From an uncultured Gammaproteobacteria bacterium (GTDB taxonomy: Bacteria > Pseudomonadota > Gammaproteobacteria > Arenicellales > Poriferihabitantaceae): 64,000 nt of DNA. The notes beneath the pieces are model-generated. The model had not been told where the DNA came from. It saw nothing but the letters and a program-made list of their open reading frames with translations, and searched no databases. Shown one piece after another: positions 12,777 to 47,694 of this stretch (positions within the stretch are counted from its first letter, which is position 1; the number at the start of each line of letters is the position of its first letter). A program made the position numbers and the translations under genes. Where the stretch lies: assembly GCA_937992195.1 (NCBI GenBank), contig CALKKV010000007.1, forward strand, positions 21,581 through 85,580. Direction: 5' to 3'.

Positions 12777-13784
12777 ATGAAGCTCGTACTAGAATCACTT
12801 AAGAAAGCTGCAATTCCTGCAGTGGTAGCCGCTGCGACAACGTTGGGATTGTCAGCACCTGCTATGGCAGAATGGTCTCCAAAGAAACCAGTGGAACTCA
12901 TCATCATGGCTGGAGCCGGTGGTGGTGCTGATCAGATTGCACGTTTACTACAAGGTTTGATTGAAACCAAAAAACTTTCTCCGCGACCTATTATTCCAAT
13001 AAACAAAGCTGGTGGTTCCGGTGCTGAAGCATTGCGATATATCCAGGATAAGAAAGGCGATGACCATACTATTCTTGTTACGCTCAATAGCTTTTATACC
13101 ACCCCGGTAATTCAAAAGGGTATCGGTGTGGATGTCAGTAACTTCACTCCTATTGGCCGGATGGCAGTTGATAACTTCCTGCTTTGGGTAAACAGTGAAA
13201 TGACAGATATCACTGATCTCGATAGCTACGTTGCGGCAGTAAAAGCTGCAGGTACAGGCTGGAAGGTTGGCGGAACGGGCACAGGTCAGGAAGACTCTAT
13301 TCTTACTGCAATGATGGAAAAAGAGTTTGGTTATGACGTAACCTATATTCCATTTCCTGGTGGCGGAACGGTAGCGAAGAATCTGGTGGGTAAGCACATT
13401 GACTCTACGGTAAACAATCCGGCTGAGCAAAGTGAGTTTTTCCGCGCTGGAAATACCAAGCCTCTAGTTCAATTCACCGCAGAGCGTTTACCTGCATACC
13501 CTGATGTTCCTACAGCGAACGAGTTAGGCGTAAACATGGAGTATTACATGCAGCGCTCTATCAATGGACCTCCAGGAATGTCTGCTGAAGCACAAGAGTG
13601 GTATATCAACCTGTTTGAGCAGCTGTTCAATTCTGAAGAATGGCAGAAGTTCTGTGTAGAAGATGGACTTGCATGCGACACCTATCTTTCAGGTGATGCA
13701 CTGGGTCAATATCACCAGGATCAAATTGCATTGCACAAAGAGCTGATTGAATCAGTGGGTGCATCTGCAATTACCGGAGAATAA
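12777..13784 (+). CDS. tctC: tripartite tricarboxylate transporter (TTT) periplasmic substrate-binding protein, TctC/Bug family
   Basis: 335 aa. Signal peptide ending PAMA-EW, then PVELIIMAGAGGGADQIARLL and NKAGGSGAEA, typical of Bug/TctC proteins. Followed by tctB and tctA. Confidence 0.9.
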   Translation: MKLVLESLKKAAIPAVVAAATTLGLSAPAMAEWSPKKPVELIIMAGAGGGADQIARLLQGLIETKKLSPRPIIPINKAGGSGAEALRYIQDKKGDDHTILVTLNSFYTTPVIQKGIGVDVSNFTPIGRMAVDNFLLWVNSEMTDITDLDSYVAAVKAAGTGWKVGGTGTGQEDSILTAMMEKEFGYDVTYIPFPGGGTVAKNLVGKHIDSTVNNPAEQSEFFRAGNTKPLVQFTAERLPAYPDVPTANELGVNMEYYMQRSINGPPGMSAEAQEWYINLFEQLFNSEEWQKFCVEDGLACDTYLSGDALGQYHQDQIALHKELIESVGASAITGE

Positions 13785-14000: not shown

Positions 14001-14510
14001 ATGACTGTAAGAACTGCTGAAATCTGTATGGCCATTCTATTGGCGCTGTGTTCAATTGCCTTGATGTTCAAGAGCGCCGAGCTAAAGATTGGTTGGGTGC
14101 CTGAAAGAGGACCCGGGTCCGGAGCGTGGCCATTTTGGCTTTCAGCCGGCATGTTGCTGACGTGTCTCGCGACTATCTACCGCTGGTTCAAGGGTGTCAC
14201 TCCTGAGTCGAAGAACCTCGAGCCGTTTATGACTAAGGATACGATTTTGGTAGTGGGGGTTTCTGCGGGTTCAATTTTATTCTTGCTGGCTGCGACGCAC
14301 TTTGTGGGTATCTATATTGCGCTGTTTTTTTTCTTATTGTTCTATCTAAGATTTATTGGGCACCATAGCTGGTTGCTAACTATTGTGATGGTGATAGTTG
14401 TGCCAATTATTGTTTTTTGCTTGTTTGAATGGGCATTAAAAATTCCATTACCGAAAGCGATCACTGAAGAATGGTTTTATCCAATCTATGATTTGATGTA
14501 TTCCTACTAA
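14001..14510 (+). CDS. tctB: TTT transporter small membrane subunit TctB
   Basis: 169 aa with 4 predicted TM helices. Its position between tctC and tctA matches TctB-family size and topology. Confidence 0.8.
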   Translation: MTVRTAEICMAILLALCSIALMFKSAELKIGWVPERGPGSGAWPFWLSAGMLLTCLATIYRWFKGVTPESKNLEPFMTKDTILVVGVSAGSILFLLAATHFVGIYIALFFFLLFYLRFIGHHSWLLTIVMVIVVPIIVFCLFEWALKIPLPKAITEEWFYPIYDLMYSY

Positions 14511-14580: not shown

Positions 14581-16104
14581 ATGGAAGAGATACTGATTCA
14601 TCTTGGAGGCGGACTTGCACAAGCAATGGAGCCGCTGAACTTCACCATGATTATCCTTGGCTGTATGCTGGGGCTGTTGATTGGCGCGATGCCTGGGCTT
14701 GGTTCTGTAAACGGCGTTGCGATTCTGTTGCCGATCACTTTTCTTGTGCCGCCAACAGCCGCTATTATTTTTCTCGCAGCTATTTACTATGGTGCAATGT
14801 ACGGCGGTGCGATTAGTTCGATTACGCTTGGTATACCCGGGGCTTCCACTGCGGTAGCAACGGTGTTTGACGGTAGGCCGTTAGCGCAAGCCGGCCATGC
14901 CGATCGAGCGTTAACCGCTGCTGCTGTCGCTTCATTTATTGGTGGCACGATTTCAGTTGTGTTATTCACTTTATTTGCGCCGCCGCTTGCAGCATTTGCC
15001 CTTAGGTTTGGTCCTGCGGAAGAGTTCGCGTTAATGCTTTTAGCGTTCGCGACGTTTATCGGCTTGGGCGGTGATGATATTCCAAAAACAGTGTTTTCAA
15101 TTTTGATCGGTCTGGTCCTGGCTACGGTCGGTCTGGATATTATTTCCGGACAGCCGAGATTGATTTTTGGCGATATAGATGGATTTCTCCACGGTATTAA
15201 TTTCCTTGTTTTAGCAATTGGAATTTATGGTATCGGAGAGATGCTTTGGACTTTGGAAACTACCCAGGGAAAAGTAACTGTCCACAAAGTGAAAATGTCG
15301 GTCTCTCAGATGAAAAGGAATTTGGGTGATGTAAAACAATATATCGGTACTACCTCACTTGGATCTGTACTGGGTTACTTTGTTGGTACCTTGCCTGCAG
15401 CGGGTGCAACCCCTGCATCGCTAATGTCTTACGGACTTGCGAAGACTTTTTCAAAAGATCCCGAGAGTTTTGGTAAGGGTAATATTGCTGGCGTCGCAGC
15501 ACCTGAGGCTGCAAATAATGCGGCATCAACTGGCTCGATGTTGCCGATGATTACCCTCGGTATTCCTGGATCTCCGACTACAGCTATTTTGCTTGGTGGC
15601 ATGATTATTTGGGGACTGAGACCTGGTCCACTTTTATTTACCGAAAACCCTGAGTTTGTATGGGGGTTGATTGGATCATTGTATATTGCAAATTTGGCGA
15701 CGGTTATCATAAATATTGCGTTTATACCTCTGTTTGTGAAGGTGTTAACTTGTCCGTTTACGATTCTTGCGCCAATTATTTATATCCTTTGCGTGGTAGG
15801 CGGGTATGCGCCGACACAAACTATGCACGATGTTTGGCTTATGCTGCTGTTTGGCATTGTTGGCTATCTACTGAGGAAACTTAATTATCCCGTTGCTCCG
15901 GCTGTGTTGGCGATTGTTTTAGGACCATTAGCGGAGCGTTCCCTTAGACAGTCGCTGCTATCTTCTCAAGGCGAGCTTTCTATCTTTGTTACACGCCCGA
16001 TATCAGCAACCTGTATTGTTATTGCCTTGGCTTTGGTTTTCTATCCGGTATACAAAAAGTTTTCGAATAAACGCGCTGCGGATATGCCGGCGGCGAGCGG
16101 CTAA
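14581..16104 (+). CDS. tctA: TTT transporter large permease subunit TctA
   Basis: 507 aa polytopic protein. GAMPGLGSVNGVAILLP, YYGAMYGGAISSI and GIPGSPTTAILLGG are conserved TctA blocks. Confidence 0.92.
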   Translation: MEEILIHLGGGLAQAMEPLNFTMIILGCMLGLLIGAMPGLGSVNGVAILLPITFLVPPTAAIIFLAAIYYGAMYGGAISSITLGIPGASTAVATVFDGRPLAQAGHADRALTAAAVASFIGGTISVVLFTLFAPPLAAFALRFGPAEEFALMLLAFATFIGLGGDDIPKTVFSILIGLVLATVGLDIISGQPRLIFGDIDGFLHGINFLVLAIGIYGIGEMLWTLETTQGKVTVHKVKMSVSQMKRNLGDVKQYIGTTSLGSVLGYFVGTLPAAGATPASLMSYGLAKTFSKDPESFGKGNIAGVAAPEAANNAASTGSMLPMITLGIPGSPTTAILLGGMIIWGLRPGPLLFTENPEFVWGLIGSLYIANLATVIINIAFIPLFVKVLTCPFTILAPIIYILCVVGGYAPTQTMHDVWLMLLFGIVGYLLRKLNYPVAPAVLAIVLGPLAERSLRQSLLSSQGELSIFVTRPISATCIVIALALVFYPVYKKFSNKRAADMPAASG

Positions 16105-16153: not shown

Positions 16154-16170
16154 TTGTATACAATATACAA
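16154..16170. promoter_or_regulatory. palindromic operator TTGTATACAATATACAA in front of the GntR-ThDP enzyme-frc operon
   Basis: 7-bp inverted arms TTGTATA/TATACAA with a 3-bp spacer. TTGTATACAA is itself a perfect 10-bp palindrome. The 15-mer GTATACAATATACAA (16156-16170) recurs exactly at 27862-27876. The site lies 47 bp upstream of the likely ATG of the GntR gene. Confidence 0.6.
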
Positions 16171-16216
16171 GCCACTGGAGCTGTTGAAATTCTTTTATGG
16201 ATGCGAACAAATAAGA

Positions 16217-16918
16217 ATGTCGGAAGACAAACCAACAATCGGCAGTTTGAAACCTCTGGATCTCTATCCTGGATTAAAAGACGCGGTATACCAATCGCTA
16301 AGGGATGCGATTTCCGAGATGGATATTTACTCCGGAATTGAACCTCCGAAATTGGATGAGCGGAAGCTTGCGGAGGAGCTTGGTGTCAGTAGAACGCCAG
16401 TGCGGGAAGCCTTGAGCCGACTAGAACAGGAGGGCCTGGTTGTGACGTATCCACGTCGTGGTGCTTTTGTAGTACGGAAAACTAAAAAAGAAATTATAGA
16501 AATTGTTACGGTATGGGCCGGACTTGAAGGAATGGCTGCGAGACTGGTGACTGAGAATGCCAGTGATCAGGAAATTTCATCGATGAGGGAAATGTTCTCC
16601 ACTTTTGACGCGAGCAATGAAGCGAGAGCGCATATAGACGAGTATTCAAGCACCAATATTGCTTTTCATCAGAGACTGATTGAGTTGAGCAAATGCAAGC
16701 TGTTGATAGATATCGCTGAAAGCTTGTTTGTCCATATGCGCGCGATTCGTCGAAAGACAATTAGCGAGCGAGATCGGGCAACAGAATCGATTATTGACCA
16801 TATGCGGATCATCCAAACGCTTGAATTGCGGGATGCCACGATGGCAGAACAACTGGTTAGAGAACACGCTATGTATTTAGCGGACCATATTAAGAAGTAT
16901 GTTGATTACTTGGATTGA
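16217..16918 (+). CDS. GntR family transcriptional regulator with FCD ligand-binding domain
   Basis: The winged HTH LDERKLAEELGVSRTPVREALSRLEQEGLV is followed by an all-helical FCD-type C-terminal domain (FHQRLIELS...). The start is taken at ATG 16217 because the longer TTG-start ORF (16154) begins inside the operator palindrome. Confidence 0.85.
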   Translation: MSEDKPTIGSLKPLDLYPGLKDAVYQSLRDAISEMDIYSGIEPPKLDERKLAEELGVSRTPVREALSRLEQEGLVVTYPRRGAFVVRKTKKEIIEIVTVWAGLEGMAARLVTENASDQEISSMREMFSTFDASNEARAHIDEYSSTNIAFHQRLIELSKCKLLIDIAESLFVHMRAIRRKTISERDRATESIIDHMRIIQTLELRDATMAEQLVREHAMYLADHIKKYVDYLD

Positions 16919-16951: not shown

Positions 16952-18688
16952 ATGACAAATAAATCAGATACCGCGCATGATACTTTGGCGCAGAAAGACA
17001 AAAGCGGCAGCGTAATTTCCGGTGGCCACCTGGTTGCCAAAGCGCTAAAGAATGAAGGGGTTGACACCGTCTTTACCCTGTGTGGTGGACATATCATCGA
17101 TATTTATGACGGCTGCATTGATGAAGGTATACGTATTGTAGATGTGCGCCACGAGCAAACCGCAGCCCATGCCGCGGATGGCTATGCGCGACAAACTGGA
17201 AAGCTGGGTTGTGTGGTAACAACTGCGGGGCCAGGATGTACCAATGCAGTGACAGGTGTTGCTACCGCATTTCGTTCAGAAAGTCCTATCTTGCATATCG
17301 GTGGTCAAAGTTCGTTGACCCAACATAAGATGGGGTCGCTACAAGACTTGCCTCATGTTGACATGATGACACCGATTACCAAGTTTGCTTCGGGTGTGTT
17401 CTCTACAGAGCGTGTTGCCGATATGGTTTCGATGGCTGCACGAGAGTGCTTTAATGGCGCTTATGGCCCGTCATATCTCGAAATTCCAAGAGATGTTCTC
17501 GATCGTGAAGTACCGATTGAGTCTGCGACTATTCCTGCGCCGGGATCGTATCGTGCTTCTGTGAAGTCGATTGGTGATCCTGCGGATATTGAAAAACTTG
17601 CCGATATATTGGTCAAAGCGGAACGTCCTGCGGTACTTTTTGGACAGCAGGTTTGGGCTTCCCAAGGACACCATGAGGCGATTCAGTTTGTCCGTGATTT
17701 GGATATTCCCGCTTATATGAACGGCGCTAGTCGGGGCATGTTGCCAAATGATGATCCGCACCATTTTGATCGCACGCGTCGTGACGCCTTCAATAATGCG
17801 GATGTCATTCTTATCGTTGGAACACCGTTCGATTTTAGAATGGGTTATGGCAAGCGAATTTCGAGCAAAGCGACTTTGGTGCAAATTGATCAAAGTTACA
17901 ACACGGTTGGAAAGAATAGAGATATCGACTTAGGAATTGCAGGTGATCCAGGTGCAATATTGGCTGCTGCAGCCCAGGCCGCCAGCGGTCGTATCGACAA
18001 TGGTGCCAAGAAAAAGCGACAGGCCTGGATGAAAGAACTTCGAGAGATCGAGGTAACCAAGCTAGAGAAACTTATGCCGATGTTTACTACCGATCAAAAT
18101 CCGATCCATCCGTATCGGTTGGCCTATGAAATTAATGAGTTTCTCGGAGACGATACAATTTATATCGGCGATGGCGGTGACATCGTAACCATCTCGGCGC
18201 AGGCGGTGAGGCCACGCAATCCTGGGCAGTGGATGGATCCTGGTGCACTGGGTTCTCTGGGTGTTGGAACTGGATTTTCCATGGCGGCAAAGCTTGCGCA
18301 TCCCGATAAAGAAGTGGTTTGCTTATACGGTGATGGCTCTTTTGGTATGACTTCTTTTGATATGGAAACGTCTCAGCGATTTGGTGCGCCGTATCTCGCG
18401 ATTGTTGGAAACAACAGTCATATGAATCAAATTCGATATGGCCAGATTGCAAAATATGGAGAAGAGCGCGGAAACATTGGAAACAAGCTCGGCGACATTC
18501 CTTTCGGTCAGTTTGGTGAAATGATCGGCGGCTATGGAGAAGAGGTAAGAGAAGCCAGCGAAATTCAGCCTGCGCTAAATCGTGCCCGTGAAGCAATTGC
18601 GAAAACAGGAAAATGTGCGGTTGTGAATGTTTGGGTAGATCCTGACGAGTATGCTCCGGGAACCAAAGCGCAAACTATGTACAAGTAA
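16952..18688 (+). CDS. thiamine-diphosphate-dependent enzyme; probable oxalyl-CoA decarboxylase or 2-hydroxyacyl-CoA lyase (specificity inferred from context only)
   Basis: 578 aa with the three-domain ThDP fold. It has an N-terminal Pyr domain (RHEQTAAHAADGYAR, TAGPGCTNAVTG) and a C-terminal PP domain with the ThDP/Mg motif GDGSFGMTSFDMETSQRFGAPYLAIVGNN. Located immediately upstream of frc. The N-terminal blocks look more acetolactate-synthase-like than the OXC sequences I recall. Confidence 0.6.
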   Translation: MTNKSDTAHDTLAQKDKSGSVISGGHLVAKALKNEGVDTVFTLCGGHIIDIYDGCIDEGIRIVDVRHEQTAAHAADGYARQTGKLGCVVTTAGPGCTNAVTGVATAFRSESPILHIGGQSSLTQHKMGSLQDLPHVDMMTPITKFASGVFSTERVADMVSMAARECFNGAYGPSYLEIPRDVLDREVPIESATIPAPGSYRASVKSIGDPADIEKLADILVKAERPAVLFGQQVWASQGHHEAIQFVRDLDIPAYMNGASRGMLPNDDPHHFDRTRRDAFNNADVILIVGTPFDFRMGYGKRISSKATLVQIDQSYNTVGKNRDIDLGIAGDPGAILAAAAQAASGRIDNGAKKKRQAWMKELREIEVTKLEKLMPMFTTDQNPIHPYRLAYEINEFLGDDTIYIGDGGDIVTISAQAVRPRNPGQWMDPGALGSLGVGTGFSMAAKLAHPDKEVVCLYGDGSFGMTSFDMETSQRFGAPYLAIVGNNSHMNQIRYGQIAKYGEERGNIGNKLGDIPFGQFGEMIGGYGEEVREASEIQPALNRAREAIAKTGKCAVVNVWVDPDEYAPGTKAQTMYK

Positions 18689-18810: not shown

Positions 18811-20055
18811 ATGAAAGCGTTAGACGGTATCAAGATACTTGATTTCACCCATGTGCAGTCGGGTCCAACCTGCACGCAATTGCTCGGCTGGTTCGGTGCT
18901 GACGTAATTAAGGTGGAACGTCCCGGTGTTGGTGATGCAACGAGAAAGCAGCTCATCGACAAGCCCGGTTCCGATTCACTGTATTTCACCATGTTGAATC
19001 ATAACAAACGCTCTTTGACGCTCAATACCAAGACTGATGATGGCAAAGAAGTTTTGGAACGGCTGATCAAAGAATGCGATGTCATGGTGGAAAACTTTGC
19101 ACCGGGAGCACTTGATCGAATGGGATTTACCTGGGAGCGAATTCAGGAGCTGAACCCGAAGATGATTATGGCTTCGGTAAAGGGTTTTGGACCTGGTCCT
19201 TATGAAGACTGCAAGGTGTATGAAAACGTTGCGCAATGTGCGGGTGGTGCGGCATCGACAACAGGCTTTCGTGATGGGCCGCCGCTGGTAACGGGCGCGC
19301 AAATTGGCGATTCCGGGACAGGGTTACACCTGTGCCTTGGAATCGTGACCGCTTTATTTCAAAGAGAACGGTCGGGGCGCGGACAAAAGGTATTAGCGCC
19401 AATGCAGGACAGTGTACTGAACTTATGTCGGGTCAAACTTCGCGATCAGCAGAGACTGGATGCCGGACCGTTAAAAGAATATTCGCAATTTGGTGAAGGC
19501 GTTGCTTTTGGTGAAGCAACTCCGCGGGCAGGAAACGATTCCGGCGGAGGTCAACCGGGTCGAATTTTGAAATGCCTTGGTTGGGAAAATGATCCAGATG
19601 CCTATACCTACTTCATCACCCAAGCCGCGGTGTGGAAAAATATTTGTGATGTGATTGGCAAGCCCGAGTGGAAGGACGATCCCGACTATGCGACTCCAGA
19701 TGTTAGATTAAATAAGCTCAATGAAATATTTGACACCATTGAAGCCTGGACAATGACGAAAGACAAGTTTGACGTGATGGATATTTGTAACCCGTTGAAT
19801 ATTCCAGTGGGCCCGATTTTGTCGATGAAAGAGTTGGCTGAAGAACCCGCCTTGCGTGACACCGGCACTATTGTTGAAGTGGATCATCCTGAACGCGGTA
19901 AGTATTTAACAGTGGGTTGCCCGGTTAAGCTTTCTGATTCTGAAGTGGACGTTACGCGATCGCCATTATTAGGAGAGCATTCTGAAGAAGTTTTAGCAAT
20001 GCTTGGTTATTCAGAAACCGATATTAGCGCAATGCGTGAATCAGGCGCTATTTAG
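18811..20055 (+). CDS. frc: formyl-CoA:oxalate CoA-transferase (family III CoA-transferase)
   Basis: 414 aa. Long colinear blocks match recalled Oxalobacter Frc: [107 protein letters not shown]. Confidence 0.88.
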
Positions 20056-20066
20056 GAGAATATAAA

Positions 20067-20978
20067 ATGAGAATTGTCGTACACGGCCAGCAGGCTTTCG
20101 GTGAAGCAGTGTTGCAAAAGCTGCTGGATAACAAAGAAGATATTGTTGCGGTTTGTACTGCGCCGGATAAAGAAGGAAGCCCAATAGACCCGTTGAAGCA
20201 GCTTGCATTGGATAATAATCTTCCAGTGCATCAACCCGCTTCATGGAAAACACCTGAAGCGGCAGAATTGATGCATTCTTTTGAGGCCGATGTATGCATG
20301 ATGGCTTATGTCCTGTTGTTCGTGCCATCAGAAGTATTAAACATCCCAAAACATGGGTCATTCCAGTATCATCCGTCCTTGCTGCCGATGCACAGGGGGC
20401 CATCGTCTATAAACTGGCCGATCGCCACAGGGGCTGTCAAAACAGGACTCACTATTTTTTGGCCAGATGATGGTCTTGATGAAGGTCCTATTCTGTTGCA
20501 AAAGACTTGCGACATCGGTCCGGATGAGACCCTAGGTGATGTTTACTTTAATAAGCTATTCCCAATGGGCGTAGACGCCATGATCGAGTCTCTTGATCTG
20601 GTGAAGCAGGGGACTGCGCCAAAAGTGGTCCAAGATCTGTCACAGGGCTCATATGAGTCGTGGTTTGGTAAAAACGAGGCGAAGTTAGATTGGTCACAAC
20701 CGGCGCACCAGGTTTATAACGTTATCCGAGCTGCAAATCCTCAACCTTCGGCCTGGACCACCCATGACGGCAATATTTTAAAGCTGTTCGATAGCCGTGT
20801 TGGCAATGGCAAGGGTGAGCCTGGAGAGGTGGTGAAAGCTAGCGGCAATGAGATTGAAATTGCGGCAGCAGAGGGTTCTATCATTGTAAGCAGAGTGAGG
20901 GCAGATGCCGGAAAAGTCTCTGCTGAAGACTATATAGCCGAAACTGGATTAAAAGCAGGTGCGCGACTGGGCACCTGA
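20067..20978 (+). CDS. formyltransferase-fold protein resembling the N-terminal hydrolase domain of 10-formyltetrahydrofolate dehydrogenase
   Basis: 303 aa. It aligns colinearly with recalled FDH N-terminal domain: GQQAFGEAV, PDKEGSPIDPL, the HG..YHPSLLPMHRGPSSINW catalytic His block, TIFWPDDGLDEGPILLQK with the catalytic Asp, and a C-terminal Fmt-like beta-barrel region. It has no dehydrogenase or ACP-like domains. Confidence 0.75.
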   Translation: MRIVVHGQQAFGEAVLQKLLDNKEDIVAVCTAPDKEGSPIDPLKQLALDNNLPVHQPASWKTPEAAELMHSFEADVCMMAYVLLFVPSEVLNIPKHGSFQYHPSLLPMHRGPSSINWPIATGAVKTGLTIFWPDDGLDEGPILLQKTCDIGPDETLGDVYFNKLFPMGVDAMIESLDLVKQGTAPKVVQDLSQGSYESWFGKNEAKLDWSQPAHQVYNVIRAANPQPSAWTTHDGNILKLFDSRVGNGKGEPGEVVKASGNEIEIAAAEGSIIVSRVRADAGKVSAEDYIAETGLKAGARLGT

Positions 20979-21108: not shown

Positions 21109-22776
21109 ATGAGTGATATTGAGATCGCACGAAAGGCGACGATTAAACCTATCGGTGAAATTGCCAAGCGATTGGATATTCCAAACGAAGCGTTAGCACC
21201 ATTTGGACATACCAAAGCAAAAGTAAACCTTGAGTATATTGATACCTTAAAGGATAAGCCTGATGGCAAGCTGATTCTGGTCACAGCGATTACACCAACG
21301 CCCGCTGGCGAAGGTAAAACCACGACTTCAGTTGGATTAACCGATGGCCTAAATAAAATTGGCAAAGATGCGATGGTTTGCCTACGTGAACCTTCTCTAG
21401 GACCGTGTTTCGGAATGAAAGGTGGTGCCGCCGGTGGTGGTCATGCTCAGGTAATTCCTATGGAGGATATCAACCTTCACTTTACCGGAGACTTTCACGC
21501 AATCACATCTGCGCATAGTTTATTGTCTGCGCTAATCGACAATCATATATATTGGGGTAATGAGGCAGGAATTGATACTCGTCGTGTTGCCTGGAGAAGG
21601 GTGGTCGACATGAATGACCGCTCACTTCGTCAAATCACCAGCTCCCTTGGTGGTGTATCAAATGGTTTCGCTAGAGAAGATGGTTTCGATATCACAGTAG
21701 CTTCGGAAGTAATGGCTATTTTTTGTCTGTCTAAGGATCTCGAAGATCTGCAGCAGCGGCTGAGTAAAATTGTGATCGGATATACCCGTGATAGAAAACC
21801 AATTACTGCTGATGCGGTTTCTGCGCCGGGACCAATGACCGTGTTGTTAAAAGATGCACTTGCTCCGAATCTGGTGCAAACATTGGAACACAATCCTGCG
21901 TTTATTCATGGTGGACCGTTTGCCAATATAGCCCACGGCTGTAACTCTGTGATCGCAACGAAAACTGCGTTGAAGATGGCGGATTATGTGGTGACTGAAG
22001 CCGGTTTCGGCGCTGATTTGGGTGCGGAAAAATTTCTTGATATCAAGTGTCGGAGCGCTGGTTTAGCGCCTGATGCTGTTGTGATCGTTGCCACGGTGCG
22101 TGCCTTGAAAATGCATGGCGGTGTGGGCAAAGACGATTTAGGAAACGAAAACGTTCAAGCGGTGAAAGACGGTTGCGTAAATCTACAAAGACATGTTGAA
22201 AATGTAAAGTCATTTGGGGTGCCTGTGGTCGTTGCAATCAACCGCTTTAGCGCTGACACCGACGCTGAAATGGCCGCGGTTAGAGAAGTTGCTGACGGCC
22301 TTGGCGTTAAGGCAATTGACGCAACCCATTGGGCAGATGGTGGTAATGGCACAACCGAGCTTGCCGAGCATGTTGCTGGTTTGGCTGACAGTGGCGAAGG
22401 TGACTTTTCGCATCTCTATCCATCGGAAATGCCGCTTTGGGAAAAGATTGAAACCATTGCAACCAAGATATATCGCGCAGACGGTATTGCGGCGGATCAG
22501 AAAACAAAAAATCAGATCAAAGATTTGCAGGATGGTGGCTTTGGTAATCTGCCTGTTTGTATTGCCAAGACGCAATATAGTTTTTCTGATGACCCAAGCA
22601 AAAAAGGTGCACCTACGGGACATACTTTACCGGTTCGAGAAGTCAGATTGTCAGCGGGAGCGGGTTTTATTGTTGCCGTGTGCGGCGACATTATGACAAT
22701 GCCTGGTTTACCTCGGGTGCCTGCAGCAAACAGTATTCGTATGAACGATGCTGGACAAGTTGAAGGGTTGTTCTAA
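21109..22776 (+). CDS. fhs: formate-tetrahydrofolate ligase (10-formyl-THF synthetase)
   Basis: 555 aa. [16 protein letters not shown]-loop, [34 protein letters not shown]. Confidence 0.96.
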
Positions 22777-22824: not shown

Positions 22825-23688
22825 ATGTCGATTCATGCTATTTTGGTCCCCACCGATGGTGGGGACTCACTTCCTAATTTACTCGAAGCGGCGCTGGTCG
22901 TAGCGCGACGTTTCGAAGCACATATCTCGGTTCTGCTGGTTTCTGAGCGGAAAATCAAAAAATCCGCGACCAAAGAGATTTCTAAAGAGCTGCGCAAGAA
23001 CCTGATCGATGAGGAAATGAGTATTCTCACCGGAGTGGCTTCCGAAACAGAGCAGCTAGTGGAAGCGTTTTCCAAACGTCGACGAATTGAATTGACAGAC
23101 CGTCCGATGAAGCAATCTGGCGTAAGTATTTCCTTTCACCATGAAAGGGGAAAGGCGACAGAAATTATGGTTCACTGGTCTAGGATGTTTGACACTACGG
23201 CGGTCATGCGACCAACCTTTAAAAGCGGTTTAGGTTGGCGCAAGGCAAGCAAGCGCTATCATGAATCTATCATGATGCAATCCGGTAGGCCGGTACTCTT
23301 GGTTCCTCCGAAATGGGACGTGCATAAAGCGCAACATGCTGTAGTTGCATGGAATCACAGTTTGGAAGCATCTCGAGCTGTTGCGATGACTTATCCTTGG
23401 CTGGTCCAAATGAAAAAAGTGACTTTAGTCGTTCCCAAAGCTTCTTTGGCCGATGGAGAAAAACTGGTTGAGAATCTGGCATGGAATGGTGCCAACGCAG
23501 AATTAATGCCACTCAACAGACGAACTTCTTCTGTTGGAAGAAGGTTGCTAAAGATCTGTGACAACATTGGTGCTGACTTTCTTGTTATGGGGGGATATAG
23601 CCATTCAAGAGTAAAAGAACGGGTTTTTGGCGGCACCACGGAATACGTGCTGCAAAACAGTCAGATTATCACTGTCATGGTGCATTGA
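22825..23688 (+). CDS. universal stress protein, tandem USP domains
   Basis: 287 aa. ILVPTDGGD at the N-terminus, a second USP repeat beginning HAVVAWNHS, and ADFLVMGGYSHSRVKERVFGGTTEYVL (USP ATP-binding G-2x-G-9x-G[ST]) at the C-terminus. Confidence 0.8.
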   Translation: MSIHAILVPTDGGDSLPNLLEAALVVARRFEAHISVLLVSERKIKKSATKEISKELRKNLIDEEMSILTGVASETEQLVEAFSKRRRIELTDRPMKQSGVSISFHHERGKATEIMVHWSRMFDTTAVMRPTFKSGLGWRKASKRYHESIMMQSGRPVLLVPPKWDVHKAQHAVVAWNHSLEASRAVAMTYPWLVQMKKVTLVVPKASLADGEKLVENLAWNGANAELMPLNRRTSSVGRRLLKICDNIGADFLVMGGYSHSRVKERVFGGTTEYVLQNSQIITVMVH

Positions 23689-23817: not shown

Positions 23818-24822
23818 ATGAAGATCTGTGTTGTCGGCGCCGGCGCAATCGGTGGCTTTATGGGGGCGCGTTTAGCCCAGTATGATCATGAAGTATCATT
23901 AATCGCAAGAGGACCGCATCTTGCCGCGATTAAAGCAAATGGTCTCAGGCTAGTGCAGGATGGCGAGGAGATTGTCGCTAAAAATGTTGTTGCCACCGAT
24001 GATATTGCCGAGCTGGGTGTTCAGGACGTCGTATTGATGGCGTTGAAGTCTCACCAAATACACGCTGTCTTGGACAAATTACCCAATATAATTGGCCCTG
24101 AGACCGTAATGGTAACTTTGCAAAATGGAATTCCCTGGTGGTATTTCCAAAAGCTGTCGGGCGACTACGAGAATAGAATTGTAGAGACATCGGATCCTGG
24201 TGGTGTACTTGCAAAAACGATCAATCCTGATTGTTTGATTGGCTGTATCGCCTATCCGGCGGCAACGATTTCTGAGCCCGGTGTTATCCAGCATATTGAG
24301 GGCGTACGGTTTCCCATTGGAGAGTTAGATGGTAGTCAGTCCGCTAGAGCCCAAAAAATTGCAGAAGCGTTTGTAGAAGCTGGATTCAAGTCTCCGGTAT
24401 TGGATGACATTCGTTCCGAGATCTGGCTCAAATTATGGGGCAATCTAACCTTTAACCCGATTAGTGCAATGACTCACGCAACACTGGAGGCAATCTGTCA
24501 ATTTCCACTAACTCGCGAAACCGCAGCGACCATGATGAGCGAAGCACAACAGGTCGCTGAACAGCTGGGTGCCAGCTTTCGGGTGTCATTGGAACGGCGG
24601 ATTGAGGGTGCCGAAAAAGTCGGGAAACATAAGACTTCAATGTTGCAAGACGTTGAAGCGGGTAAACCGCTGGAAATTGATGGAATGCTTGGCGTTGTGA
24701 TTGAGCTTGCTGATATGACTGCGATCCCTGTTCCAACTCTGAAGGCGGTATATGCCTGTGTATCTCTGTTAAACCATACAATGGCTGAGCAAGGTATACG
24801 CATAGAAGGCACTACTGTTTAG
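23818..24822 (+). CDS. ketopantoate reductase (PanE/ApbA) family oxidoreductase; physiological substrate uncertain
   Basis: 334 aa. N-terminal Rossmann MKICVVGAGAIGG, LQNGI, and KTSMLQD in the C-terminal ApbA domain. Only 24 bp separate it from aceK. Confidence 0.8.
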   Translation: MKICVVGAGAIGGFMGARLAQYDHEVSLIARGPHLAAIKANGLRLVQDGEEIVAKNVVATDDIAELGVQDVVLMALKSHQIHAVLDKLPNIIGPETVMVTLQNGIPWWYFQKLSGDYENRIVETSDPGGVLAKTINPDCLIGCIAYPAATISEPGVIQHIEGVRFPIGELDGSQSARAQKIAEAFVEAGFKSPVLDDIRSEIWLKLWGNLTFNPISAMTHATLEAICQFPLTRETAATMMSEAQQVAEQLGASFRVSLERRIEGAEKVGKHKTSMLQDVEAGKPLEIDGMLGVVIELADMTAIPVPTLKAVYACVSLLNHTMAEQGIRIEGTTV

Positions 24823-24846: not shown

Positions 24847-26583
24847 ATGCCAAATAATGAAGTCAAAATAGCAGAGGAAGCCGGCAGCGCCGCTAAGTTG
24901 GTCCATGACCAGTTTATGCGGTTCTATCAAGAGTTTCGGCAGATACCGGATCAAGCCAAGCTCGCATTTGAAAGTCGAGATCATCAAGAATCTCTTAACC
25001 TGAGCAGCCGGCGCCTGCGTTTATATAGTATTAGCATTCGCGCAGTAGGTGAGCAAATCAAAAAGCAGCTCACTTGTCTCAGTGATTCCGAGGCCCATTG
25101 GCAGCTGGTCGAATCGCAATATCGAGATAGTGTTGCGAATGAGTACTTTGCTGACCTCTCTATGGCGTATTTACACTCGATTCGACGAAAAATCTATCAA
25201 GGAGAGTGGCGAGCCGAGGATTACACGTTATATAGAAGTAAGTACCAAACCGATAGCGATTTCCAGGATGATGTTGACCGTTATCCGGTTACGAGAACAG
25301 AGTTATCAAGTGCGACAGAAAAAATTCTTGAAGCAGCAGGATTCAATATTCCTTATGAAAACTTGCATAGAGATATTGGGAAACTTGCGGAACGCGCGCA
25401 GAGGAATCTCGGCGGCAGAGCCGACGTGGAAAGCGATTTTGAAATTGAGATGTTTCGTGCAATTTTTTTTCGCAATCGCGGTGCGTATTTAGTTGGTCGT
25501 GCAGTATTTCGTTCCGGGAGAATTCAACCCCTGATTATTGCACTGTTAAATGGTGAAGATGGAATCTACGTAGACGCTTTAATTACCAGCAGAACCTACG
25601 CTCACAATATGTTCAGCTCGACCTTGGCGAACTTCCATGTGACGAATGAACATTACCATGAGCTTTGTCGCTTCTTGCGCAGCATTATGCCTTCCAGGCC
25701 GTTGGGGTTACATTATTCTACTGTGGGGTATAACCATCTAGGGAAGGTTGCCGTGATGAACGAAATGGAAGAAGAGTGGGAGAAGTTTGGTGACACGATG
25801 TCGGTTGCTCCCGGCACTCCCGGAACCGTTGCCATAGGATTCTGCATGCCTGACTCAGCTTATGTTTTAAAAGTAGTCAGAGATAAACCTACCGAAGGAT
25901 ATAAATGGGGAGAGTTTAGTGGCGTAGAGTCTGTCTTAAGAAAGTATAACCAGGTGCATGAAATCAATCGTACGGACAGTATGTTGGATAGCATTGTCTA
26001 CTACAATTTTCGATTACGCCTTGACTGGTTTACAGATGATTTGAAAGAGCAGTTGTTGGATCAGGCTGGTGGTAGCGTTCGGGTCGACAATCAAGATCTT
26101 GTATTCAAATACTTGATCGTGCAAAGAAAGCTAACACCACTACCAATTTATCTCGAGACGGCGAGTGAAAAACAACAGCAAACAGTAATGGTGAATCTTG
26201 GATACTGCATTCGCAATAATGCGGCAGGAAATATTTTTAACCGAGATCTTGATGCGCGGAACTATGGCGTGTCGTCCATGAGTAAAGTGTATCTATTTGA
26301 CTATGATGCAATCGAACCATTGACCGAGATAAAAGTCAGAACCAACCTTGATCGTATTGATGGTGAAGAAGATATACCTGACTGGTATTTCGAAGATGGC
26401 GTCATTTTTCTTCCAGAAGAGCTGACTACTGGACTCTGTTTGCCGTTTCGTGAGTTACGAAGATTGTTTTCGGACGAACACAAGCAGTTACATACCGTGG
26501 ATTATTGGGAATCTATCCAGAAAGACTTGAATAATAATATTGTGCCATCGGTGAGTGTTTATCCCGATAGCGAAAGGCTGTGA
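24847..26583 (+). CDS. aceK: isocitrate dehydrogenase kinase/phosphatase
   Basis: 578 aa, colinear with E. coli AceK. Examples: FFRNRGAYLVGR vs FYRNKAAWLVGK, the kinase region VLKVVRDK, NIFNRDLDARNYGV, and VYLFDYDAI vs VVFYDYDEI. Confidence 0.92.
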   Translation: MPNNEVKIAEEAGSAAKLVHDQFMRFYQEFRQIPDQAKLAFESRDHQESLNLSSRRLRLYSISIRAVGEQIKKQLTCLSDSEAHWQLVESQYRDSVANEYFADLSMAYLHSIRRKIYQGEWRAEDYTLYRSKYQTDSDFQDDVDRYPVTRTELSSATEKILEAAGFNIPYENLHRDIGKLAERAQRNLGGRADVESDFEIEMFRAIFFRNRGAYLVGRAVFRSGRIQPLIIALLNGEDGIYVDALITSRTYAHNMFSSTLANFHVTNEHYHELCRFLRSIMPSRPLGLHYSTVGYNHLGKVAVMNEMEEEWEKFGDTMSVAPGTPGTVAIGFCMPDSAYVLKVVRDKPTEGYKWGEFSGVESVLRKYNQVHEINRTDSMLDSIVYYNFRLRLDWFTDDLKEQLLDQAGGSVRVDNQDLVFKYLIVQRKLTPLPIYLETASEKQQQTVMVNLGYCIRNNAAGNIFNRDLDARNYGVSSMSKVYLFDYDAIEPLTEIKVRTNLDRIDGEEDIPDWYFEDGVIFLPEELTTGLCLPFRELRRLFSDEHKQLHTVDYWESIQKDLNNNIVPSVSVYPDSERL

Positions 26584-28062: not shown

Positions 28063-29232
28063 ATGAATATTCATGAATATCAAGCCAAGCAGCTATTAGG
28101 CGAGTTTGGTGTAGCAGTTCCTCGGGGCAAGGTAGCCTTTAGCGTCGATGATGCAGTTTCTGCCGCAGAGGAGCTAGGTGGCTCAATTTGGGTTGTCAAA
28201 GCACAAATACACGCCGGTGGTCGGGGCAAGGGCGGTGGCGTAAAAGTGGTGGACTCAATGGATAAATTGAAATCTACCGCTGAGGAGATCTTAGGTATGC
28301 AGCTAGTGACCCACCAGACGGGTCCAGCTGGGCAGGAAGTTAAGCGTATCTATATTGAAGAGGGGTGCGATATCGCGAGAGAGCTATATCTTGGTTTATT
28401 GATTGATCGAGCGACCAGTCGTGTAACGATTATTGCTTCTACAGAAGGCGGTATGGATATCGAGGAAGTTGCGGCGAATACCCCTGAGAAAATCATTACC
28501 GTAGTGATTGATCCGGCAATAGGTCTTCAGTCTTTCCATGCAAGGCGACTTGCCTTCGGTCTGGGTCTTGAGGGCGCACAGGTGAAGTCAGCAGTAAAGT
28601 TTTTAACGGCGATGTATAGGTCATTTATGGATCTAGATGCCAGTATGGTAGAGATCAATCCGTTGGTTGTGAAAGGTGACGGTGACCTGATTGCACTGGA
28701 TGCAAAAATGAACTTCGATAGCAATGCGCTTTACCGTCATCCGAATGTCGAAGAATTACGAGATGAGGACGAAGAAGATCCAGCGGAATTAGAAGCGGCG
28801 AGTCATGAGCTGAATTATATAAAGCTGGATGGTTCAATTGGTTGCATGGTCAACGGTGCTGGCCTTGCGATGGCAACTATGGACATTATTCAGCTTTATG
28901 GAAGTTCTCCGGCAAACTTCCTAGACGTCGGTGGTGGAGCAACCACAGAACGAGTGACTGCGGCATTCAAAATTATTCTTTCTGATGACAATGTTAAAGG
29001 TATTTTGGTAAACATATTTGGCGGTATTATGAAATGTGATGTCATCGCTGAGGGCATTGTCGCAGCGGCAAAACAGGTTGAGCTGGATGTGCCGTTGGTT
29101 GTGCGTTTAGAAGGAACCAATGTCGATCTTGGTAAGAAGATTCTGGCGGATTCGGGGCTTCCGATTCTGTCCGCAGATAATCTGGCAGATGCTGCCGAAA
29201 AGGCAGTAAAAGCTGTCAAGGAGGCTGCGTAA
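28063..29232 (+). CDS. sucC: succinate-CoA ligase (ADP-forming) beta subunit
   Basis: 389 aa. [72 protein letters not shown]. Confidence 0.9.
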
Positions 29233-30104
29233 TGGCTGTTTTAATCGATAAAAATACCAAGGTAATCTGCCAGGGTTTCACTGGTTCAACCGCGACTTTT
29301 CACAGCGAACAAGCGATTGAATACGGTACCAAGATGGTGGGTGGGGTTGTTCCCGGAAAGGGGGGCATGACCCATCTTGGTCTTCCAGTTTTTGACACAG
29401 TGGTAGGGGCTAAAGAAAAAACAGAAGCAAATGCTTCGGTCATTTATGTGCCGCCGCCATTCGCGACAGACGCGATCATGGAAGCCATCGATGCAGAAAT
29501 TGAGCTGATCGTTTGCATTACAGAAGGCGTTCCGGTTCTGGATATGGTGAAGGTAAAACGGATGCTTGAAGGTAGCAACAGTCGTCTGGTTGGACCCAAC
29601 TGTCCCGGTGTGATTACGCCAGACGCCTGCAAGATTGGAATTATGCCTGGGCATATCCACAAGAAAGGTAACGTAGGGATCGTTTCTCGGTCCGGCACCC
29701 TTACATACGAAGCAGTAGCGCAAACTACCGCGGCCGGAATGGGTCAAAGTACTTGTATTGGCATTGGTGGTGACCCGGTCAATGGCACCAACTTTATTGA
29801 CTGTCTTGAGATGTTTTTGGGAGACGATGAAACCGAGTCCATCATTATGATTGGTGAAATCGGCGGCACTGCAGAAGAAGAAGCTGCGGAATTCATCAAA
29901 CAAAACAAAGTAAAGAAACCGATGTGTGGTTTTATTGCCGGTGTGACCGCGCCTCCGGGGCGGCGTATGGGGCACGCTGGTGCAATTATTGCAGGCGGCA
30001 AGGGAAGCGCAGGCGATAAAATCGAGGCGATGCAGTCTGCCGGCATTCAGGTTGCGGATTCACCTGCTTCTTTAGGAACTACACTAAAGAAGGCATTGTC
30101 GTAA
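29232..30104 (+). CDS. sucD: succinate-CoA ligase alpha subunit
   Basis: 290 aa. [34 protein letters not shown] and the phosphohistidine loop MGHAGAII. The ATG overlaps the sucC stop. Confidence 0.92.
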
Positions 30105-30329: not shown

Positions 30330-32027
30330 ATGGGCATCGTTTCCAATATCGCACAAAAGCGTGGTCACCCCGGTAGTGGGCGGAAAAAAACACGGGGGCA
30401 GCCAAAAGGACGTCAAGTTAACCCTCAGGCGCTCGAGCAAATGTCAGCATTGATCGGCACGCCAACCAGACGCGATCTGTTGATCGAATATCTACATCAA
30501 ATTCAGGATAAATTCGGACATCTTTCGTCAGATAATCTGACTGCTCTGGCAACCCACATGAAGCTGGCGTTGACCGAAGTTTACGAAGTGGCAACTTTTT
30601 ACGCCCACTTCGATGTCGTGCGAGATGAAGAGGTTCCTCCTCCAGCGGTAACAATTCGCGTTTGTGACAGCATTTCCTGTCAGCTGGCGGGTGCGGAACA
30701 ATTGATCACTGAGCTTGAAGCTGATGCAGGTAAGGATATCCGGGTTGTGCGCGCTCCCTGCATGGGGCGGTGTGATTTGGCACCAGTGGCTGAAGTGGGC
30801 CATAACCATGTTGAGCAGGTTACTGCTGAGAAAGCGCTTGCTGTGGCTAAGGCCGGTGATCTACATCCAACTATTCCCGATTACAAAAACTTGGAAGCTT
30901 ACGTGGCCGATGGCGGCTATGGCCTGCTTAAAGAATGTCTGGCTGGAAAAAGAACCCCCGAAGAAATTATCGAAGTACTGAATAATTCGTCACTTCAAGG
31001 TCTCGGAGGAGCGGGTTTTCCAACCGGTCGGAAATGGAGCATTGTGCGTGGATTTGATGGTCCTAGACTGATGGCGGTGAACGGCGATGAAGGTGAGCCC
31101 GGCACGTTTAAAGATCGGTTTTATATGGAGTCTGATCCACATCGATTTATTGAAGGAATGTTGATTGCAGCTTGGGTAGTTGGTATTGAAACTAGCTATG
31201 TATATATGCGTGACGAGTATCCAGCGGTTATTAAAATTCTCAAAACTGAGATTGATAAGGTGCAGGCTGCGGGCTTGGCCGACCATCTGAACATTGAGAT
31301 TCGACGTGGTGCCGGCGCCTATATCTGCGGTGAAGAATCTTCCATGATTGAGTCCATTGAAGGTAAGCGTGGTTTGCCGCGTAATAGACCGCCGTATGTA
31401 GCTGAAGTCGGTATATTTGGTAAGCCGACGTTGGTGAATAACCTGGAGACTTTGTTTTGGGTGCGAGATATCGTTGAAAAAGGCGCCGACTGGTTTGCAA
31501 ATTCTGGTTCCAACGGCCGCAAAGGTCTGCGCTCTTATTCGGTTTCAGGCAGAGTCAATAAGCCGGGTATGATCCTCGCTCCAGCGGGAACCACGGTCAA
31601 TGAACTAATAGAGAAGTACTGCGGCGGCATGGTTGGTGGTCATAGCTTTAAAGGCTATCTCCCGGGTGGTGCTTCCGGTGGAATTCTGCCGGCTCGGTTG
31701 GGTGACGTTCCGCTGGACTTTGGCACTTTGCAGGAGCACGGCTGTTTTATCGGTTCTGCAGCAGTGGTTATATTCAGCGATCAGGACAATATGAAAGACG
31801 TTGCGCTGAATCTAATGCGATTCTTCGAGGATGAAAGCTGCGGTCAATGTACGCCATGTCGCGTCGGAACGGAAAAAGCGGTGAAACTGATGGTGAAACC
31901 GGATTGGGATACCGGCTTGTTGACGGAACTCAGTCAGGTAATGACAGACGCATCGATTTGCGGTCTGGGGCAGGCGGCAGGGAATCCGATAAATTGTGTT
32001 CTGAAGTATTTTCCGGAGGATCTGTAA
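30330..32027 (+). CDS. NAD-dependent formate dehydrogenase diaphorase subunit (fused NuoE-like 2Fe-2S plus NuoF-like FMN/NAD/4Fe-4S modules)
   Basis: 565 aa. The NuoE-like part carries C..SC...C.GRC cysteines. The NuoF-like part has GLGGAGFPTGRKW, GDEGEPGTFKDR, YICGEESSMIESIEG and ESCGQCTPCR. The basic N-terminal extension is RGHPGSGRKKTRGQPKGRQ. The stop abuts the ATG of the catalytic subunit. Confidence 0.85.
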   Translation: MGIVSNIAQKRGHPGSGRKKTRGQPKGRQVNPQALEQMSALIGTPTRRDLLIEYLHQIQDKFGHLSSDNLTALATHMKLALTEVYEVATFYAHFDVVRDEEVPPPAVTIRVCDSISCQLAGAEQLITELEADAGKDIRVVRAPCMGRCDLAPVAEVGHNHVEQVTAEKALAVAKAGDLHPTIPDYKNLEAYVADGGYGLLKECLAGKRTPEEIIEVLNNSSLQGLGGAGFPTGRKWSIVRGFDGPRLMAVNGDEGEPGTFKDRFYMESDPHRFIEGMLIAAWVVGIETSYVYMRDEYPAVIKILKTEIDKVQAAGLADHLNIEIRRGAGAYICGEESSMIESIEGKRGLPRNRPPYVAEVGIFGKPTLVNNLETLFWVRDIVEKGADWFANSGSNGRKGLRSYSVSGRVNKPGMILAPAGTTVNELIEKYCGGMVGGHSFKGYLPGGASGGILPARLGDVPLDFGTLQEHGCFIGSAAVVIFSDQDNMKDVALNLMRFFEDESCGQCTPCRVGTEKAVKLMVKPDWDTGLLTELSQVMTDASICGLGQAAGNPINCVLKYFPEDL

Positions 32028-45266: not shown

Positions 45267-45350
45267 AACCGGTTTACTGCTAAATTCTTAATTTAAAAGA
45301 CAATGAAAACCACTTGTTCAAAGGTTTTAAGACATTGCTCAATGATACGA

Positions 45351-46448: not shown

Positions 46449-46449
46449 G

Positions 46450-47607: not shown

Positions 47608-47694
47608 ATTTTCTCCGTTGCGTGTTCCCGGTGAACAATTTTTCAATTGCTTGGGTATTAATTTATTTTCTATGTATAACTATTAAATTTTGAT

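Follow-up and report, generated by a model that had tools for sequence, protein, structure and literature searches.

What would a stand-alone relative of the 10-formyltetrahydrofolate dehydrogenase (FDH) hydrolase domain do in a gene cluster for oxalate catabolism, next to a ligase that spends ATP on making the substrate of that domain? The question is raised by a 303-amino acid (aa) protein encoded in the 64-kb window that we analyzed (64,000 nucleotides of contig CALKKV010000007.1, from an uncultured gammaproteobacterium), where its gene lies between frc, encoding formyl-coenzyme A (CoA):oxalate CoA-transferase, and fhs, encoding formate-tetrahydrofolate (THF) ligase. We tentatively propose, with a probability that we place somewhat below even, that the protein may be a reversible 10-formyl-THF:CoA formyltransferase, and that together with Fhs it would supply the formyl-CoA with which the Frc cycle is primed or replenished. 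What we observed is homology, residue conservation, domain content and gene order; from these we infer that CoA is the acceptor, which reaction takes place and in which net direction it runs in vivo.

In Pfam, both domains of the Formyl_trans superfamily are found in the 303-aa protein above their gathering thresholds, namely Formyl_trans_N (PF00551) at residues 1–160 (101.1 bits, cutoff 26.1) and Formyl_trans_C (PF02911) at residues 202–290 (68.9 bits, cutoff 21.1). No further Pfam domain was detected, and the PP-binding, Aldedh and ACT domains are all absent, in keeping with an initial annotation of this DNA, which had noted that domains resembling acyl carrier protein and aldehyde dehydrogenase are missing. 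The two catalytic blocks to which that annotation had drawn attention are likewise in place: YHPSLLPMHRG occupies residues 101–111 and provides His102, and DDGLDEGP occupies residues 134–141 and provides Asp138. Judged from its sequence, the open reading frame (ORF) is a genuine two-domain formyltransferase. A PDB sequence search puts FDH (ALDH1L1) hydrolase domains first, those from zebrafish, rat and human, at 189–201 bits over residues 1–260 (4qpd, 200.6 bits; 1s3i, 198.5 bits); Fmt reaches at most 154 bits, ArnA at most 90, and HypX (listed as HoxX) and PurN at most about 35–37. Every curated NCBIfam model scored below its cutoff, including those for fmt (TIGR00460; 146.7 bits against 201.5), ArnA (117 against 777) and PurN (TIGR00639; 37.8 against 150.1), and the protein also has a C-terminal domain, unlike PurN. 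An AlphaFold2 model (pLDDT 81.5) again gave 4qpd, an FDH hydrolase domain, as the top Foldseek match. The TM-scores were only ~0.6, probably because of the orientation of the two domains, and little was gained over the sequence search.

The residues that are key to the FDH hydrolase domain are Phe89, His106, Ser108, Arg114, Asp142 and Tyr200 (PMC4388273). Their equivalents in the window protein, Phe85, His102, Ser104, Arg110, Asp138 and Tyr196, are each kept in at least 97% of the 92 family members (46–100% identity) that were compared column by column. His102 is retained in 91 of the 92 and Asp138 in all of them, and the two line up with their His and Asp counterparts in FDH, Fmt, ArnA and HypX. 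Where Fmt differs, the family has FDH-type residues at Gln8, Tyr101, Pro103, Ser113, Phe131 and Pro166, together with a one-residue insertion at position 161 that is found in FDH and not in Fmt. In the alignment, the basic tRNA-recognition loop of Fmt (the PAGRGKKLM insertion of the E. coli enzyme) is missing from the family, as it is from FDH. Specific to the family is Gln100, which stands in place of the Asn in the N-x-H motif of Fmt and ArnA, and of the hydrophobic residue of FDH (Ile104).

The initial annotation had held the protein to be colinear with the FDH domain rather than with Fmt or PurN, and had proposed to check this by phylogeny. We built a rough neighbor-joining (distance) tree from trimmed columns of 109 sequences, comprising representatives of clusters at 50% identity together with Fmt and ArnA of E. 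coli, HypX of C. necator, and FDH of rat and zebrafish. The family shares a clade with further stand-alone bacterial proteins of ~300 aa and with the N-terminal domains of three-domain FDHs, and this clade is separate from that of Fmt. Sequence scores, tree, signature residues and the missing Fmt loop thus agree with the earlier assignment, and the protein is, as far as such comparisons can tell, a stand-alone descendant of the lineage that also gave rise to the FDH (ALDH1L1) hydrolase domain. Public sources give relatives of the protein the name “methionyl-tRNA formyltransferase”, and it does share with Fmt the Formyl_trans_N and Formyl_trans_C architecture, the catalytic His/Asp pair and 33% identity (to E. 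coli Fmt). That it is a second Fmt is nevertheless very improbable, since it scores under the NCBIfam cutoff, lacks both the tRNA loop and the Asn of the N-x-H motif, groups with FDH in the tree, and has its gene within an oxalate operon and not beside def; moreover, a plasmid-borne copy, described below, carries the name fmt_2.

In the window, frc ends 11 bp before the formyltransferase ORF, with the TAG stop codon of frc overlapping the AGGAGA ribosome-binding site, and fhs starts 130 bp 3′ of the ORF, with no terminator-like site on the plus strand between the two. This position between frc and fhs was already recognized in the initial annotation, and the identity of both neighbors is secured by NCBIfam equivalogs (Table 1). 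The formyltransferase gene would be co-transcribed with frc, and translational coupling is probable.

A scan of one genome per species showed that at least 579 genomes encode a relative of the 303-aa protein. We examined the neighborhoods of the best 80 of these loci, whose products are 62–74% identical to the window protein, and called neighbors by tblastn with the window proteins. The gammaproteobacterial carriers among these 80 belong to Arenicellales, Granulosicoccaceae and Poriferihabitaceae, and the alphaproteobacterial carriers to Hyphomicrobiaceae, Filomicrobium, Paracoccaceae, Kiloniellaceae, Puniceispirillum, Geminicoccaceae and Beijerinckiaceae. The earlier proposal had been made to depend on an association with frc and fhs outside the source genome, and such an association was found and is very strong: frc lies directly 5′ on the same strand in 71 of the 76 loci with room for it (median gap 65 bp), and fhs lies directly 3′ in 42 of 66 (median gap 62 bp). 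At 11 loci the gene directly 3′ of the formyltransferase is not fhs but one for a PanE-type reductase, which is found within 10 kb at 18 loci. A GntR regulator homolog is present at 60 of the 80 loci, 5′ of a gene for a thiamine diphosphate (ThDP)-dependent enzyme, TctA at 48 of the 80, on either side of the cassette, and a universal stress protein (Usp) directly after fhs at 13 of the 80, although at low identity (27–56%). All of the recurrent neighbors are enzymes of formyl-CoA, oxalyl-CoA, formate or folate metabolism; genes of carrier proteins, amine pathways or sugar-nucleotide pathways do not recur in the 80 loci. From this same-strand co-location across species, we conclude that the 303-aa family is an accessory component of the oxalate-catabolic cluster of Frc and oxalyl-CoA decarboxylase (Oxc).

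The slot 5′ of frc could be scored in 66 loci. It holds canonical Oxc in 34, an enzyme of the type found in the window, which resembles 2-hydroxyacyl-CoA lyase (HACL), in 27 (L001, L004–L013, L026, L029, L044, L060, L068, L069, L073, L076 and L077 among them), and neither in five, so that Oxc or its HACL-like substitute is found upstream in 61 of the 66; the assignment as canonical Oxc rests on a single representative, L050 (1011 bits, TIGR03254). Whether Oxc or the HACL-like enzyme comes before it, Frc is 75–86% identical in most loci. Judged by sequence, the HACL-like gene looks like a paralog that has taken the place of oxc in a cassette whose frc is otherwise unchanged, and its product may act on oxalyl-CoA or on a 2-hydroxyacyl-CoA. 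We also considered whether the HACL-like enzyme signals a different substrate for Frc, and rejected this because Frc passes the oxalate-specific equivalog and stays at the identity just given with either ThDP enzyme.

The association extends beyond the closest relatives. La 6, a cultured marine isolate, has a 46%-identical copy of the formyltransferase on its plasmid pLA6_002, in the order GntR-oxc-frc-“fmt_2”-“fhs_2”-usp-tctCBA ... panE-glyA2, next to ppc and sucCD-like genes; here, too, usp directly follows the fhs gene, and the names fmt_2 and fhs_2 suggest dedicated second copies. A 50%-identical relative adjoins tctCBA, Oxc and a CoA-transferase, and a 52%-identical one is followed by fhs. 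Relatives at ~40–43% identity have unrelated neighbors, with the proviso that some of these distant neighborhoods lie on short contigs and are thus partly uninformative. Because the association is kept at 46–52% identity and is gone at ~40–43%, the boundary of the frc-linked family is near 45%. Three loci with a typical alphaproteobacterial cassette at 65–67% identity come from other taxa, namely L062 (labeled Leptospira interrogans LS0056), L055 (a Bacteroidota metagenome-assembled genome [MAG]) and L040 (a Rubripirellula MAG); these contigs probably reflect contamination or mis-binning, and the taxa named are unlikely to be real carriers.

What, then, might the enzyme do next to Frc? FDH, its closest solved relative (~40% identity over ~250 residues, 200 bits), offers a guide, since it has the same two sub-domains, all six key residues, and an insertion and signatures that have no counterpart in Fmt. 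The two differ in that three-domain FDH is fused to a carrier domain and an aldehyde dehydrogenase domain, both of which are absent from the 303-aa protein, which also lacks a five-residue insertion that FDH has after Trp60, and has Gln100 for FDH Ile104. In addition, the 303-aa protein is bacterial and encoded in an operon with frc and fhs, and its formyl group would not be oxidized to CO2. True FDHs recovered by the same search (P0200 and P0259) carry both extra domains, and none of the longer family representatives is a fusion to Frc, Fhs or a carrier protein; the long ones are either true FDHs or fragments.

In FDH, the native reaction of the hydrolase domain is transfer of the formyl group from 10-formyl-THF to the thiol of 4′-phosphopantetheine (PMC8748788, PMC4388273), and the isolated domain requires millimolar β-mercaptoethanol, which has been seen bound at the formyl position (PMC4388273, PMC8748788, PMC6802093). 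Because the stand-alone protein has the FDH active site without the carrier domain, it would need an external thiol. CoA has the same 4′-phosphopantetheine arm as the FDH carrier domain and is the cofactor of both upstream enzymes, and for these reasons we propose it as the acceptor. In the proposed reaction, 10-formyl-THF + CoA ⇌ THF + formyl-CoA, the formyl group would be transferred to and from the free thiol of CoA, which would take the place of the phosphopantetheine arm borne by the carrier domain of FDH itself, and the parts that His106, Ser108 and Asp142 play in FDH would fall to His102, Ser104 and Asp138.

If, instead, the protein simply hydrolyzed 10-formyl-THF, it would fulfill a PurU-like function on an FDH-like scaffold, releasing formate and THF so as to balance the folate pool during influx through Fhs. 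The isolated N-terminal domain of FDH does hydrolyze 10-formyl-THF in vitro (PMC4388273), and the residues needed for hydrolysis are all kept in the family. However, that hydrolysis requires added thiol and is considered non-physiological (PMC4388273), and co-expression of a hydrolase with Fhs would set up a futile, ATP-wasting cycle. Hydrolysis would also leave unexplained the near-obligate adjacency to frc with its overlapping ribosome-binding site, and the architecture of PurU is absent, as the Pfam scan found no ACT domain and the NCBIfam scan no PurU match. We therefore consider a hydrolase quite improbable.

Transfer from 10-formyl-THF to CoA has precedents. For LctF, described as the first enzyme of its kind, liquid chromatography-mass spectrometry showed that 10-formyl-THF and CoA are converted to formyl-CoA in vitro (PMC11730586), and formylation of CoA from 10-formyl-THF has been proposed on structural grounds for HypX's N-terminal domain (PMC6802093). 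The 303-aa protein would thus share both fold and reaction with these enzymes, the likeness to LctF being drawn from its published description. HypX, however, relies on a His/Asp/Asp triad and carries a fused crotonase-like decarbonylase, and LctF serves a polyketide/non-ribosomal peptide pathway, whereas the 303-aa family is large, phylogenetically separate, and set in primary oxalate and one-carbon (C1) catabolism. It is also conceivable that 10-formyl-THF made by Fhs is used to formylate something else, be it an amine metabolite, the phosphopantetheine arm of a separate carrier protein, or an intermediate bound to Frc. Most enzymes of this fold are N-formyltransferases (ArnA and the sugar formyltransferases), and the family-specific Gln100 means that acceptor chemistry could differ. 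Yet the recurrent neighbors described above point to formyl-CoA, oxalyl-CoA, formate and folate, and not to carrier proteins, amines or sugar nucleotides, and the family representatives showed no fusion to a carrier or any other domain, so that an acceptor other than CoA appears improbable.

In the Frc/Oxc cycle, Frc converts oxalate and formyl-CoA to oxalyl-CoA and formate, and Oxc converts oxalyl-CoA to formyl-CoA and CO2. Because the Oxc step regenerates the formyl-CoA used by Frc, formyl-CoA is catalytic and formate is the net product, and the cycle is unable to start without formyl-CoA. Formyl-CoA has a half-life of ~1.9 h, and E. coli primes the cycle with the acetyl-CoA:oxalate CoA-transferase YfdE (PMC3720670). 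When oxalyl-CoA is reduced to glyoxylate by an enzyme of the PanE2/ApbA2 type, there is no return to formyl-CoA (PMC7486775, PMC13409138). We propose that the missing formyl-CoA would be made in two steps: Fhs would convert formate, ATP and THF to 10-formyl-THF, and the formyltransferase would then pass the formyl group to CoA, yielding formyl-CoA and THF. The pair would amount to a two-step, THF-mediated, ADP-forming formyl-CoA synthetase that spends one ATP per formyl-CoA and draws on the formate that the pathway itself produces. Such a supply could serve at start-up, before any formyl-CoA is present, after hydrolysis of the labile pool, and when oxalyl-CoA is diverted to assimilation (reduction to glyoxylate) rather than decarboxylation; with Frc included, the three enzymes would be equivalent to an ADP-forming oxalyl-CoA synthetase. 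The complete cassette would then consist of the regulator, Oxc or the HACL-like decarboxylase, Frc, the formyltransferase and Fhs, often with the PanE-type reductase and the Tct transporter. In role, the proposed system resembles YfdE/UctC, the source of activated substrate that gets the oxalate cycle going, or keeps it going, when formyl-CoA is scarce (PMC3720670), but YfdE/UctC belongs to the unrelated class III CoA-transferase family and uses acetyl-CoA, not formate, ATP and folate. Formyl-CoA supply would account for the adjacency to frc, for the frequent fhs or PanE neighbor, and for the apparent second copies in La 6.

The initial annotation had suggested a formyl transfer from formyl-CoA to THF, bypassing the ATP cost of Fhs. 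An exchange of formyl groups between CoA and folate is chemically plausible, given the precedents of FDH, HypX and LctF, but we rank this direction second, behind formyl-CoA supply, and consider it unlikely. It would feed C1 units to folate for the serine cycle and purines without the cost of Fhs, or, with Fhs running in reverse, would convert formyl-CoA via 10-formyl-THF to formate and ATP, in the manner of Pta-AckA. By an estimate that uses textbook group-transfer potentials, this direction is thermodynamically favored. Fhs is considered reversible (PMC5934484). The cassette on pLA6_002 lies beside genes of the serine-cycle type (ppc, sucCD/mtk-like and glyA2), and a PanE-type enzyme acting oxidatively, from glyoxylate to oxalyl-CoA as proposed for C. 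necator ApbA2 (PMC7486775), would be a net source of formyl-CoA. On oxalate, however, stoichiometry implies that Frc requires every formyl-CoA released by decarboxylation; any that is drained to folate must be replaced from another CoA donor at the cost of ATP, and the saving comes to zero, which weakens the argument for a bypass. The direction becomes attractive only where oxalyl-CoA arises by oxidation of glyoxylate; such a route would make Frc superfluous, and yet frc is the tightest neighbor of all. We prefer net flow toward formyl-CoA because the pairing with Fhs is conserved and because all three precedents, FDH, HypX and LctF, run from folate to thiol.

Several observations weigh against formyl-CoA supply. 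Transfer from 10-formyl-THF to CoA is uphill by several kJ/mol, by the same textbook estimate, and would need removal of the product. In about one third of the loci, fhs is not adjacent, and in three Paracoccaceae MAGs (L043, L046 and L056) the gene directly follows a GntR regulator with frc, oxc and fhs not found within 10 kb; these exceptions could reflect a use of the enzyme that is independent of frc. SucCD-type genes near some cassettes would fit an alternative supply of the CoA donor. HypX is only ~19% identical to the 303-aa protein (PDB E-value about 1e-8), and the low confidence of the AlphaFold2 model in the catalytic loop (residues 104–116) limits the view of the acceptor site.

Table 1. 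Genes of the cassette and of its surroundings in the window
Feature	Position	Strand	Evidence and remarks
TctC	12777–13784	+	Pfam TctC
TctB	14001–14510	+	Pfam TctB
TctA	14581–16104	+	Pfam TctA
GntR/FCD-family transcriptional regulator	16154–16918	+	Pfam GntR and FCD
ThDP-dependent enzyme, Oxc/HACL family	16952–18688	+	PDB, NCBIfam
frc, formyl-CoA:oxalate CoA-transferase	18811–20055	+	TIGR03253, 709.8 bits (cutoff 504.2); NF003809, 720 bits
FDH-hydrolase-domain-like stand-alone formyltransferase	20067–20978	+	ATG start, 303 aa; Pfam, PDB, NCBIfam, tree, residues
fhs, formate-tetrahydrofolate ligase	21109–22776	+	NF010030, 925 bits (cutoff 652)
Tandem universal stress protein	22825–23688	+	Pfam Usp
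PanE/ApbA-family reductase	23818–24822	+	NF005089, 447.7 bits
AceK-like isocitrate dehydrogenase kinase/phosphatase	24847–26583	+	NCBIfam, 431 bits, just under the cutoff of 488
sucC/sucD-type ADP-forming acyl-CoA ligase	28063–30104	+	PRK00696, 604 bits; system membership uncertain
NAD-linked formate dehydrogenase, 2Fe-2S/FMN subunit	30330–32027	+	Pfam 2Fe-2S_thioredx, Complex1_51K, NADH_4Fe-4S
Formate dehydrogenase molybdopterin subunit	32028–34772	+	Pfam Fer2_4, Molybdop_Fe4S4, Molybdopterin, Molydop_binding

The remaining genes around the formyltransferase (Table 1) can be assigned with varying firmness. The tripartite tricarboxylate-type transporter TctC/TctB/TctA is the presumed carboxylate importer of the cluster, with oxalate as its putative substrate, and the GntR/FCD protein is the likely regulator of the cassette. 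Comparison of its sequence indicates that the ThDP enzyme of the window is not a canonical oxalyl-CoA decarboxylase and is nearer to 2-hydroxyacyl-CoA lyases: its PDB matches are HACL (7pt3, 269 bits) and HACS (8vza, 242 bits) against 151 and 167 bits for Oxc (2c31 and 2q27, respectively), and it reaches 222 bits with the NCBIfam Oxc model, under the cutoff of 557. We presume that it performs the formyl-CoA-releasing step. By analogy with PanE2/ApbA2 (PMC7486775), the PanE/ApbA reductase is a candidate oxalyl-CoA reductase/CoA-acylating glyoxylate dehydrogenase, and in that capacity would draw off oxalyl-CoA and raise the demand for new formyl-CoA. The AceK-like gene directly 3′ of it, a homolog of which is found near the cassette in six of the 80 loci, may link glyoxylate derived from oxalyl-CoA to control of the glyoxylate shunt.

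Two minus-strand genes separate the AceK-like gene from the sucCD-type genes. The SucC-like beta subunit (28063–29232, plus strand) scores 604 bits as succinyl-CoA ligase and 593.5 as malate-CoA ligase beta (cutoff 604), and the ligase may be a malyl-CoA/serine-cycle enzyme rather than SucCD of the tricarboxylic acid cycle. On pLA6_002, too, SucCD-like genes adjoin the cassette (with ppc next to them), as they do in L046, where they are divergent from the formyltransferase gene. Beyond the sucCD-type genes, ~8 kb 3′ of fhs, is the pair of formate dehydrogenase genes, the first of which (565 aa) is an apparent fusion of a gamma-like 2Fe-2S subunit and a beta-like FMN/NADH subunit, and the second of which encodes 914 aa. 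The enzyme would be a sink for the formate released by Frc. No canonical fmt was found within the 64-kb window. Further away, and unrelated to the formyltransferase cassette, are a stress-type run on the minus strand (44115–48534), consisting of a 383-aa ORF, an SPFH/Band-7 protein with GYF_2, TelA and a PF10112 protein (5-bromo-4-chloroindolyl phosphate hydrolysis protein family), and a 412-aa protein with an Abi_alpha (abortive infection) domain on the plus strand (54100–55338).

The chemistry that we propose has precedent; what is new is the FDH-like stand-alone lineage, its setting in primary oxalate/C1 metabolism, and the proposed role in formyl-CoA supply. We found no description in the literature of a formyltransferase in frc/oxc operons, and the paper on strain La 6 mentions neither oxalate nor the formyltransferase gene. 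In its widest form, to which we give slightly less credence still than to the reaction and role themselves, our suggestion is that primary metabolism in several hundred or more alpha- and gammaproteobacterial species of sea and soil may include a formyl-CoA synthetase that has so far gone unrecognized, an ADP-forming and folate-mediated one made up of Fhs and the FDH-like enzyme. This pair would prime and replenish the formyl-CoA:oxalate cycle, act with Frc as a three-step oxalyl-CoA synthetase for assimilation of oxalate, and turn formate into formyl-CoA by a natural route that is efficient in ATP, and the 303-aa family might represent the free-living ancestor type of the hydrolase domain of animal FDH.

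Formyl-CoA is the C1 donor in HACL-based synthetic pathways of one-carbon assimilation, in which a natural route from formate to formyl-CoA via Fhs and the formyltransferase, at the expense of one ATP converted to ADP, would be useful. If our proposal is true, the widespread misannotation of these proteins as “methionyl-tRNA formyltransferase” would be corrected, and the family would show a role for the FDH hydrolase domain when it is not fused to carrier and dehydrogenase domains. For the organisms concerned, which include abundant marine lineages such as Arenicellales, Granulosicoccaceae, sponge symbionts, Hyphomicrobiaceae, the Roseobacter group and the SAR116 relative Puniceispirillum, it would explain where the first and the replacement formyl-CoA in oxalate metabolism come from, a recognized gap, and would do so by a solution other than the acetyl-CoA-dependent transferase of E. 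coli.

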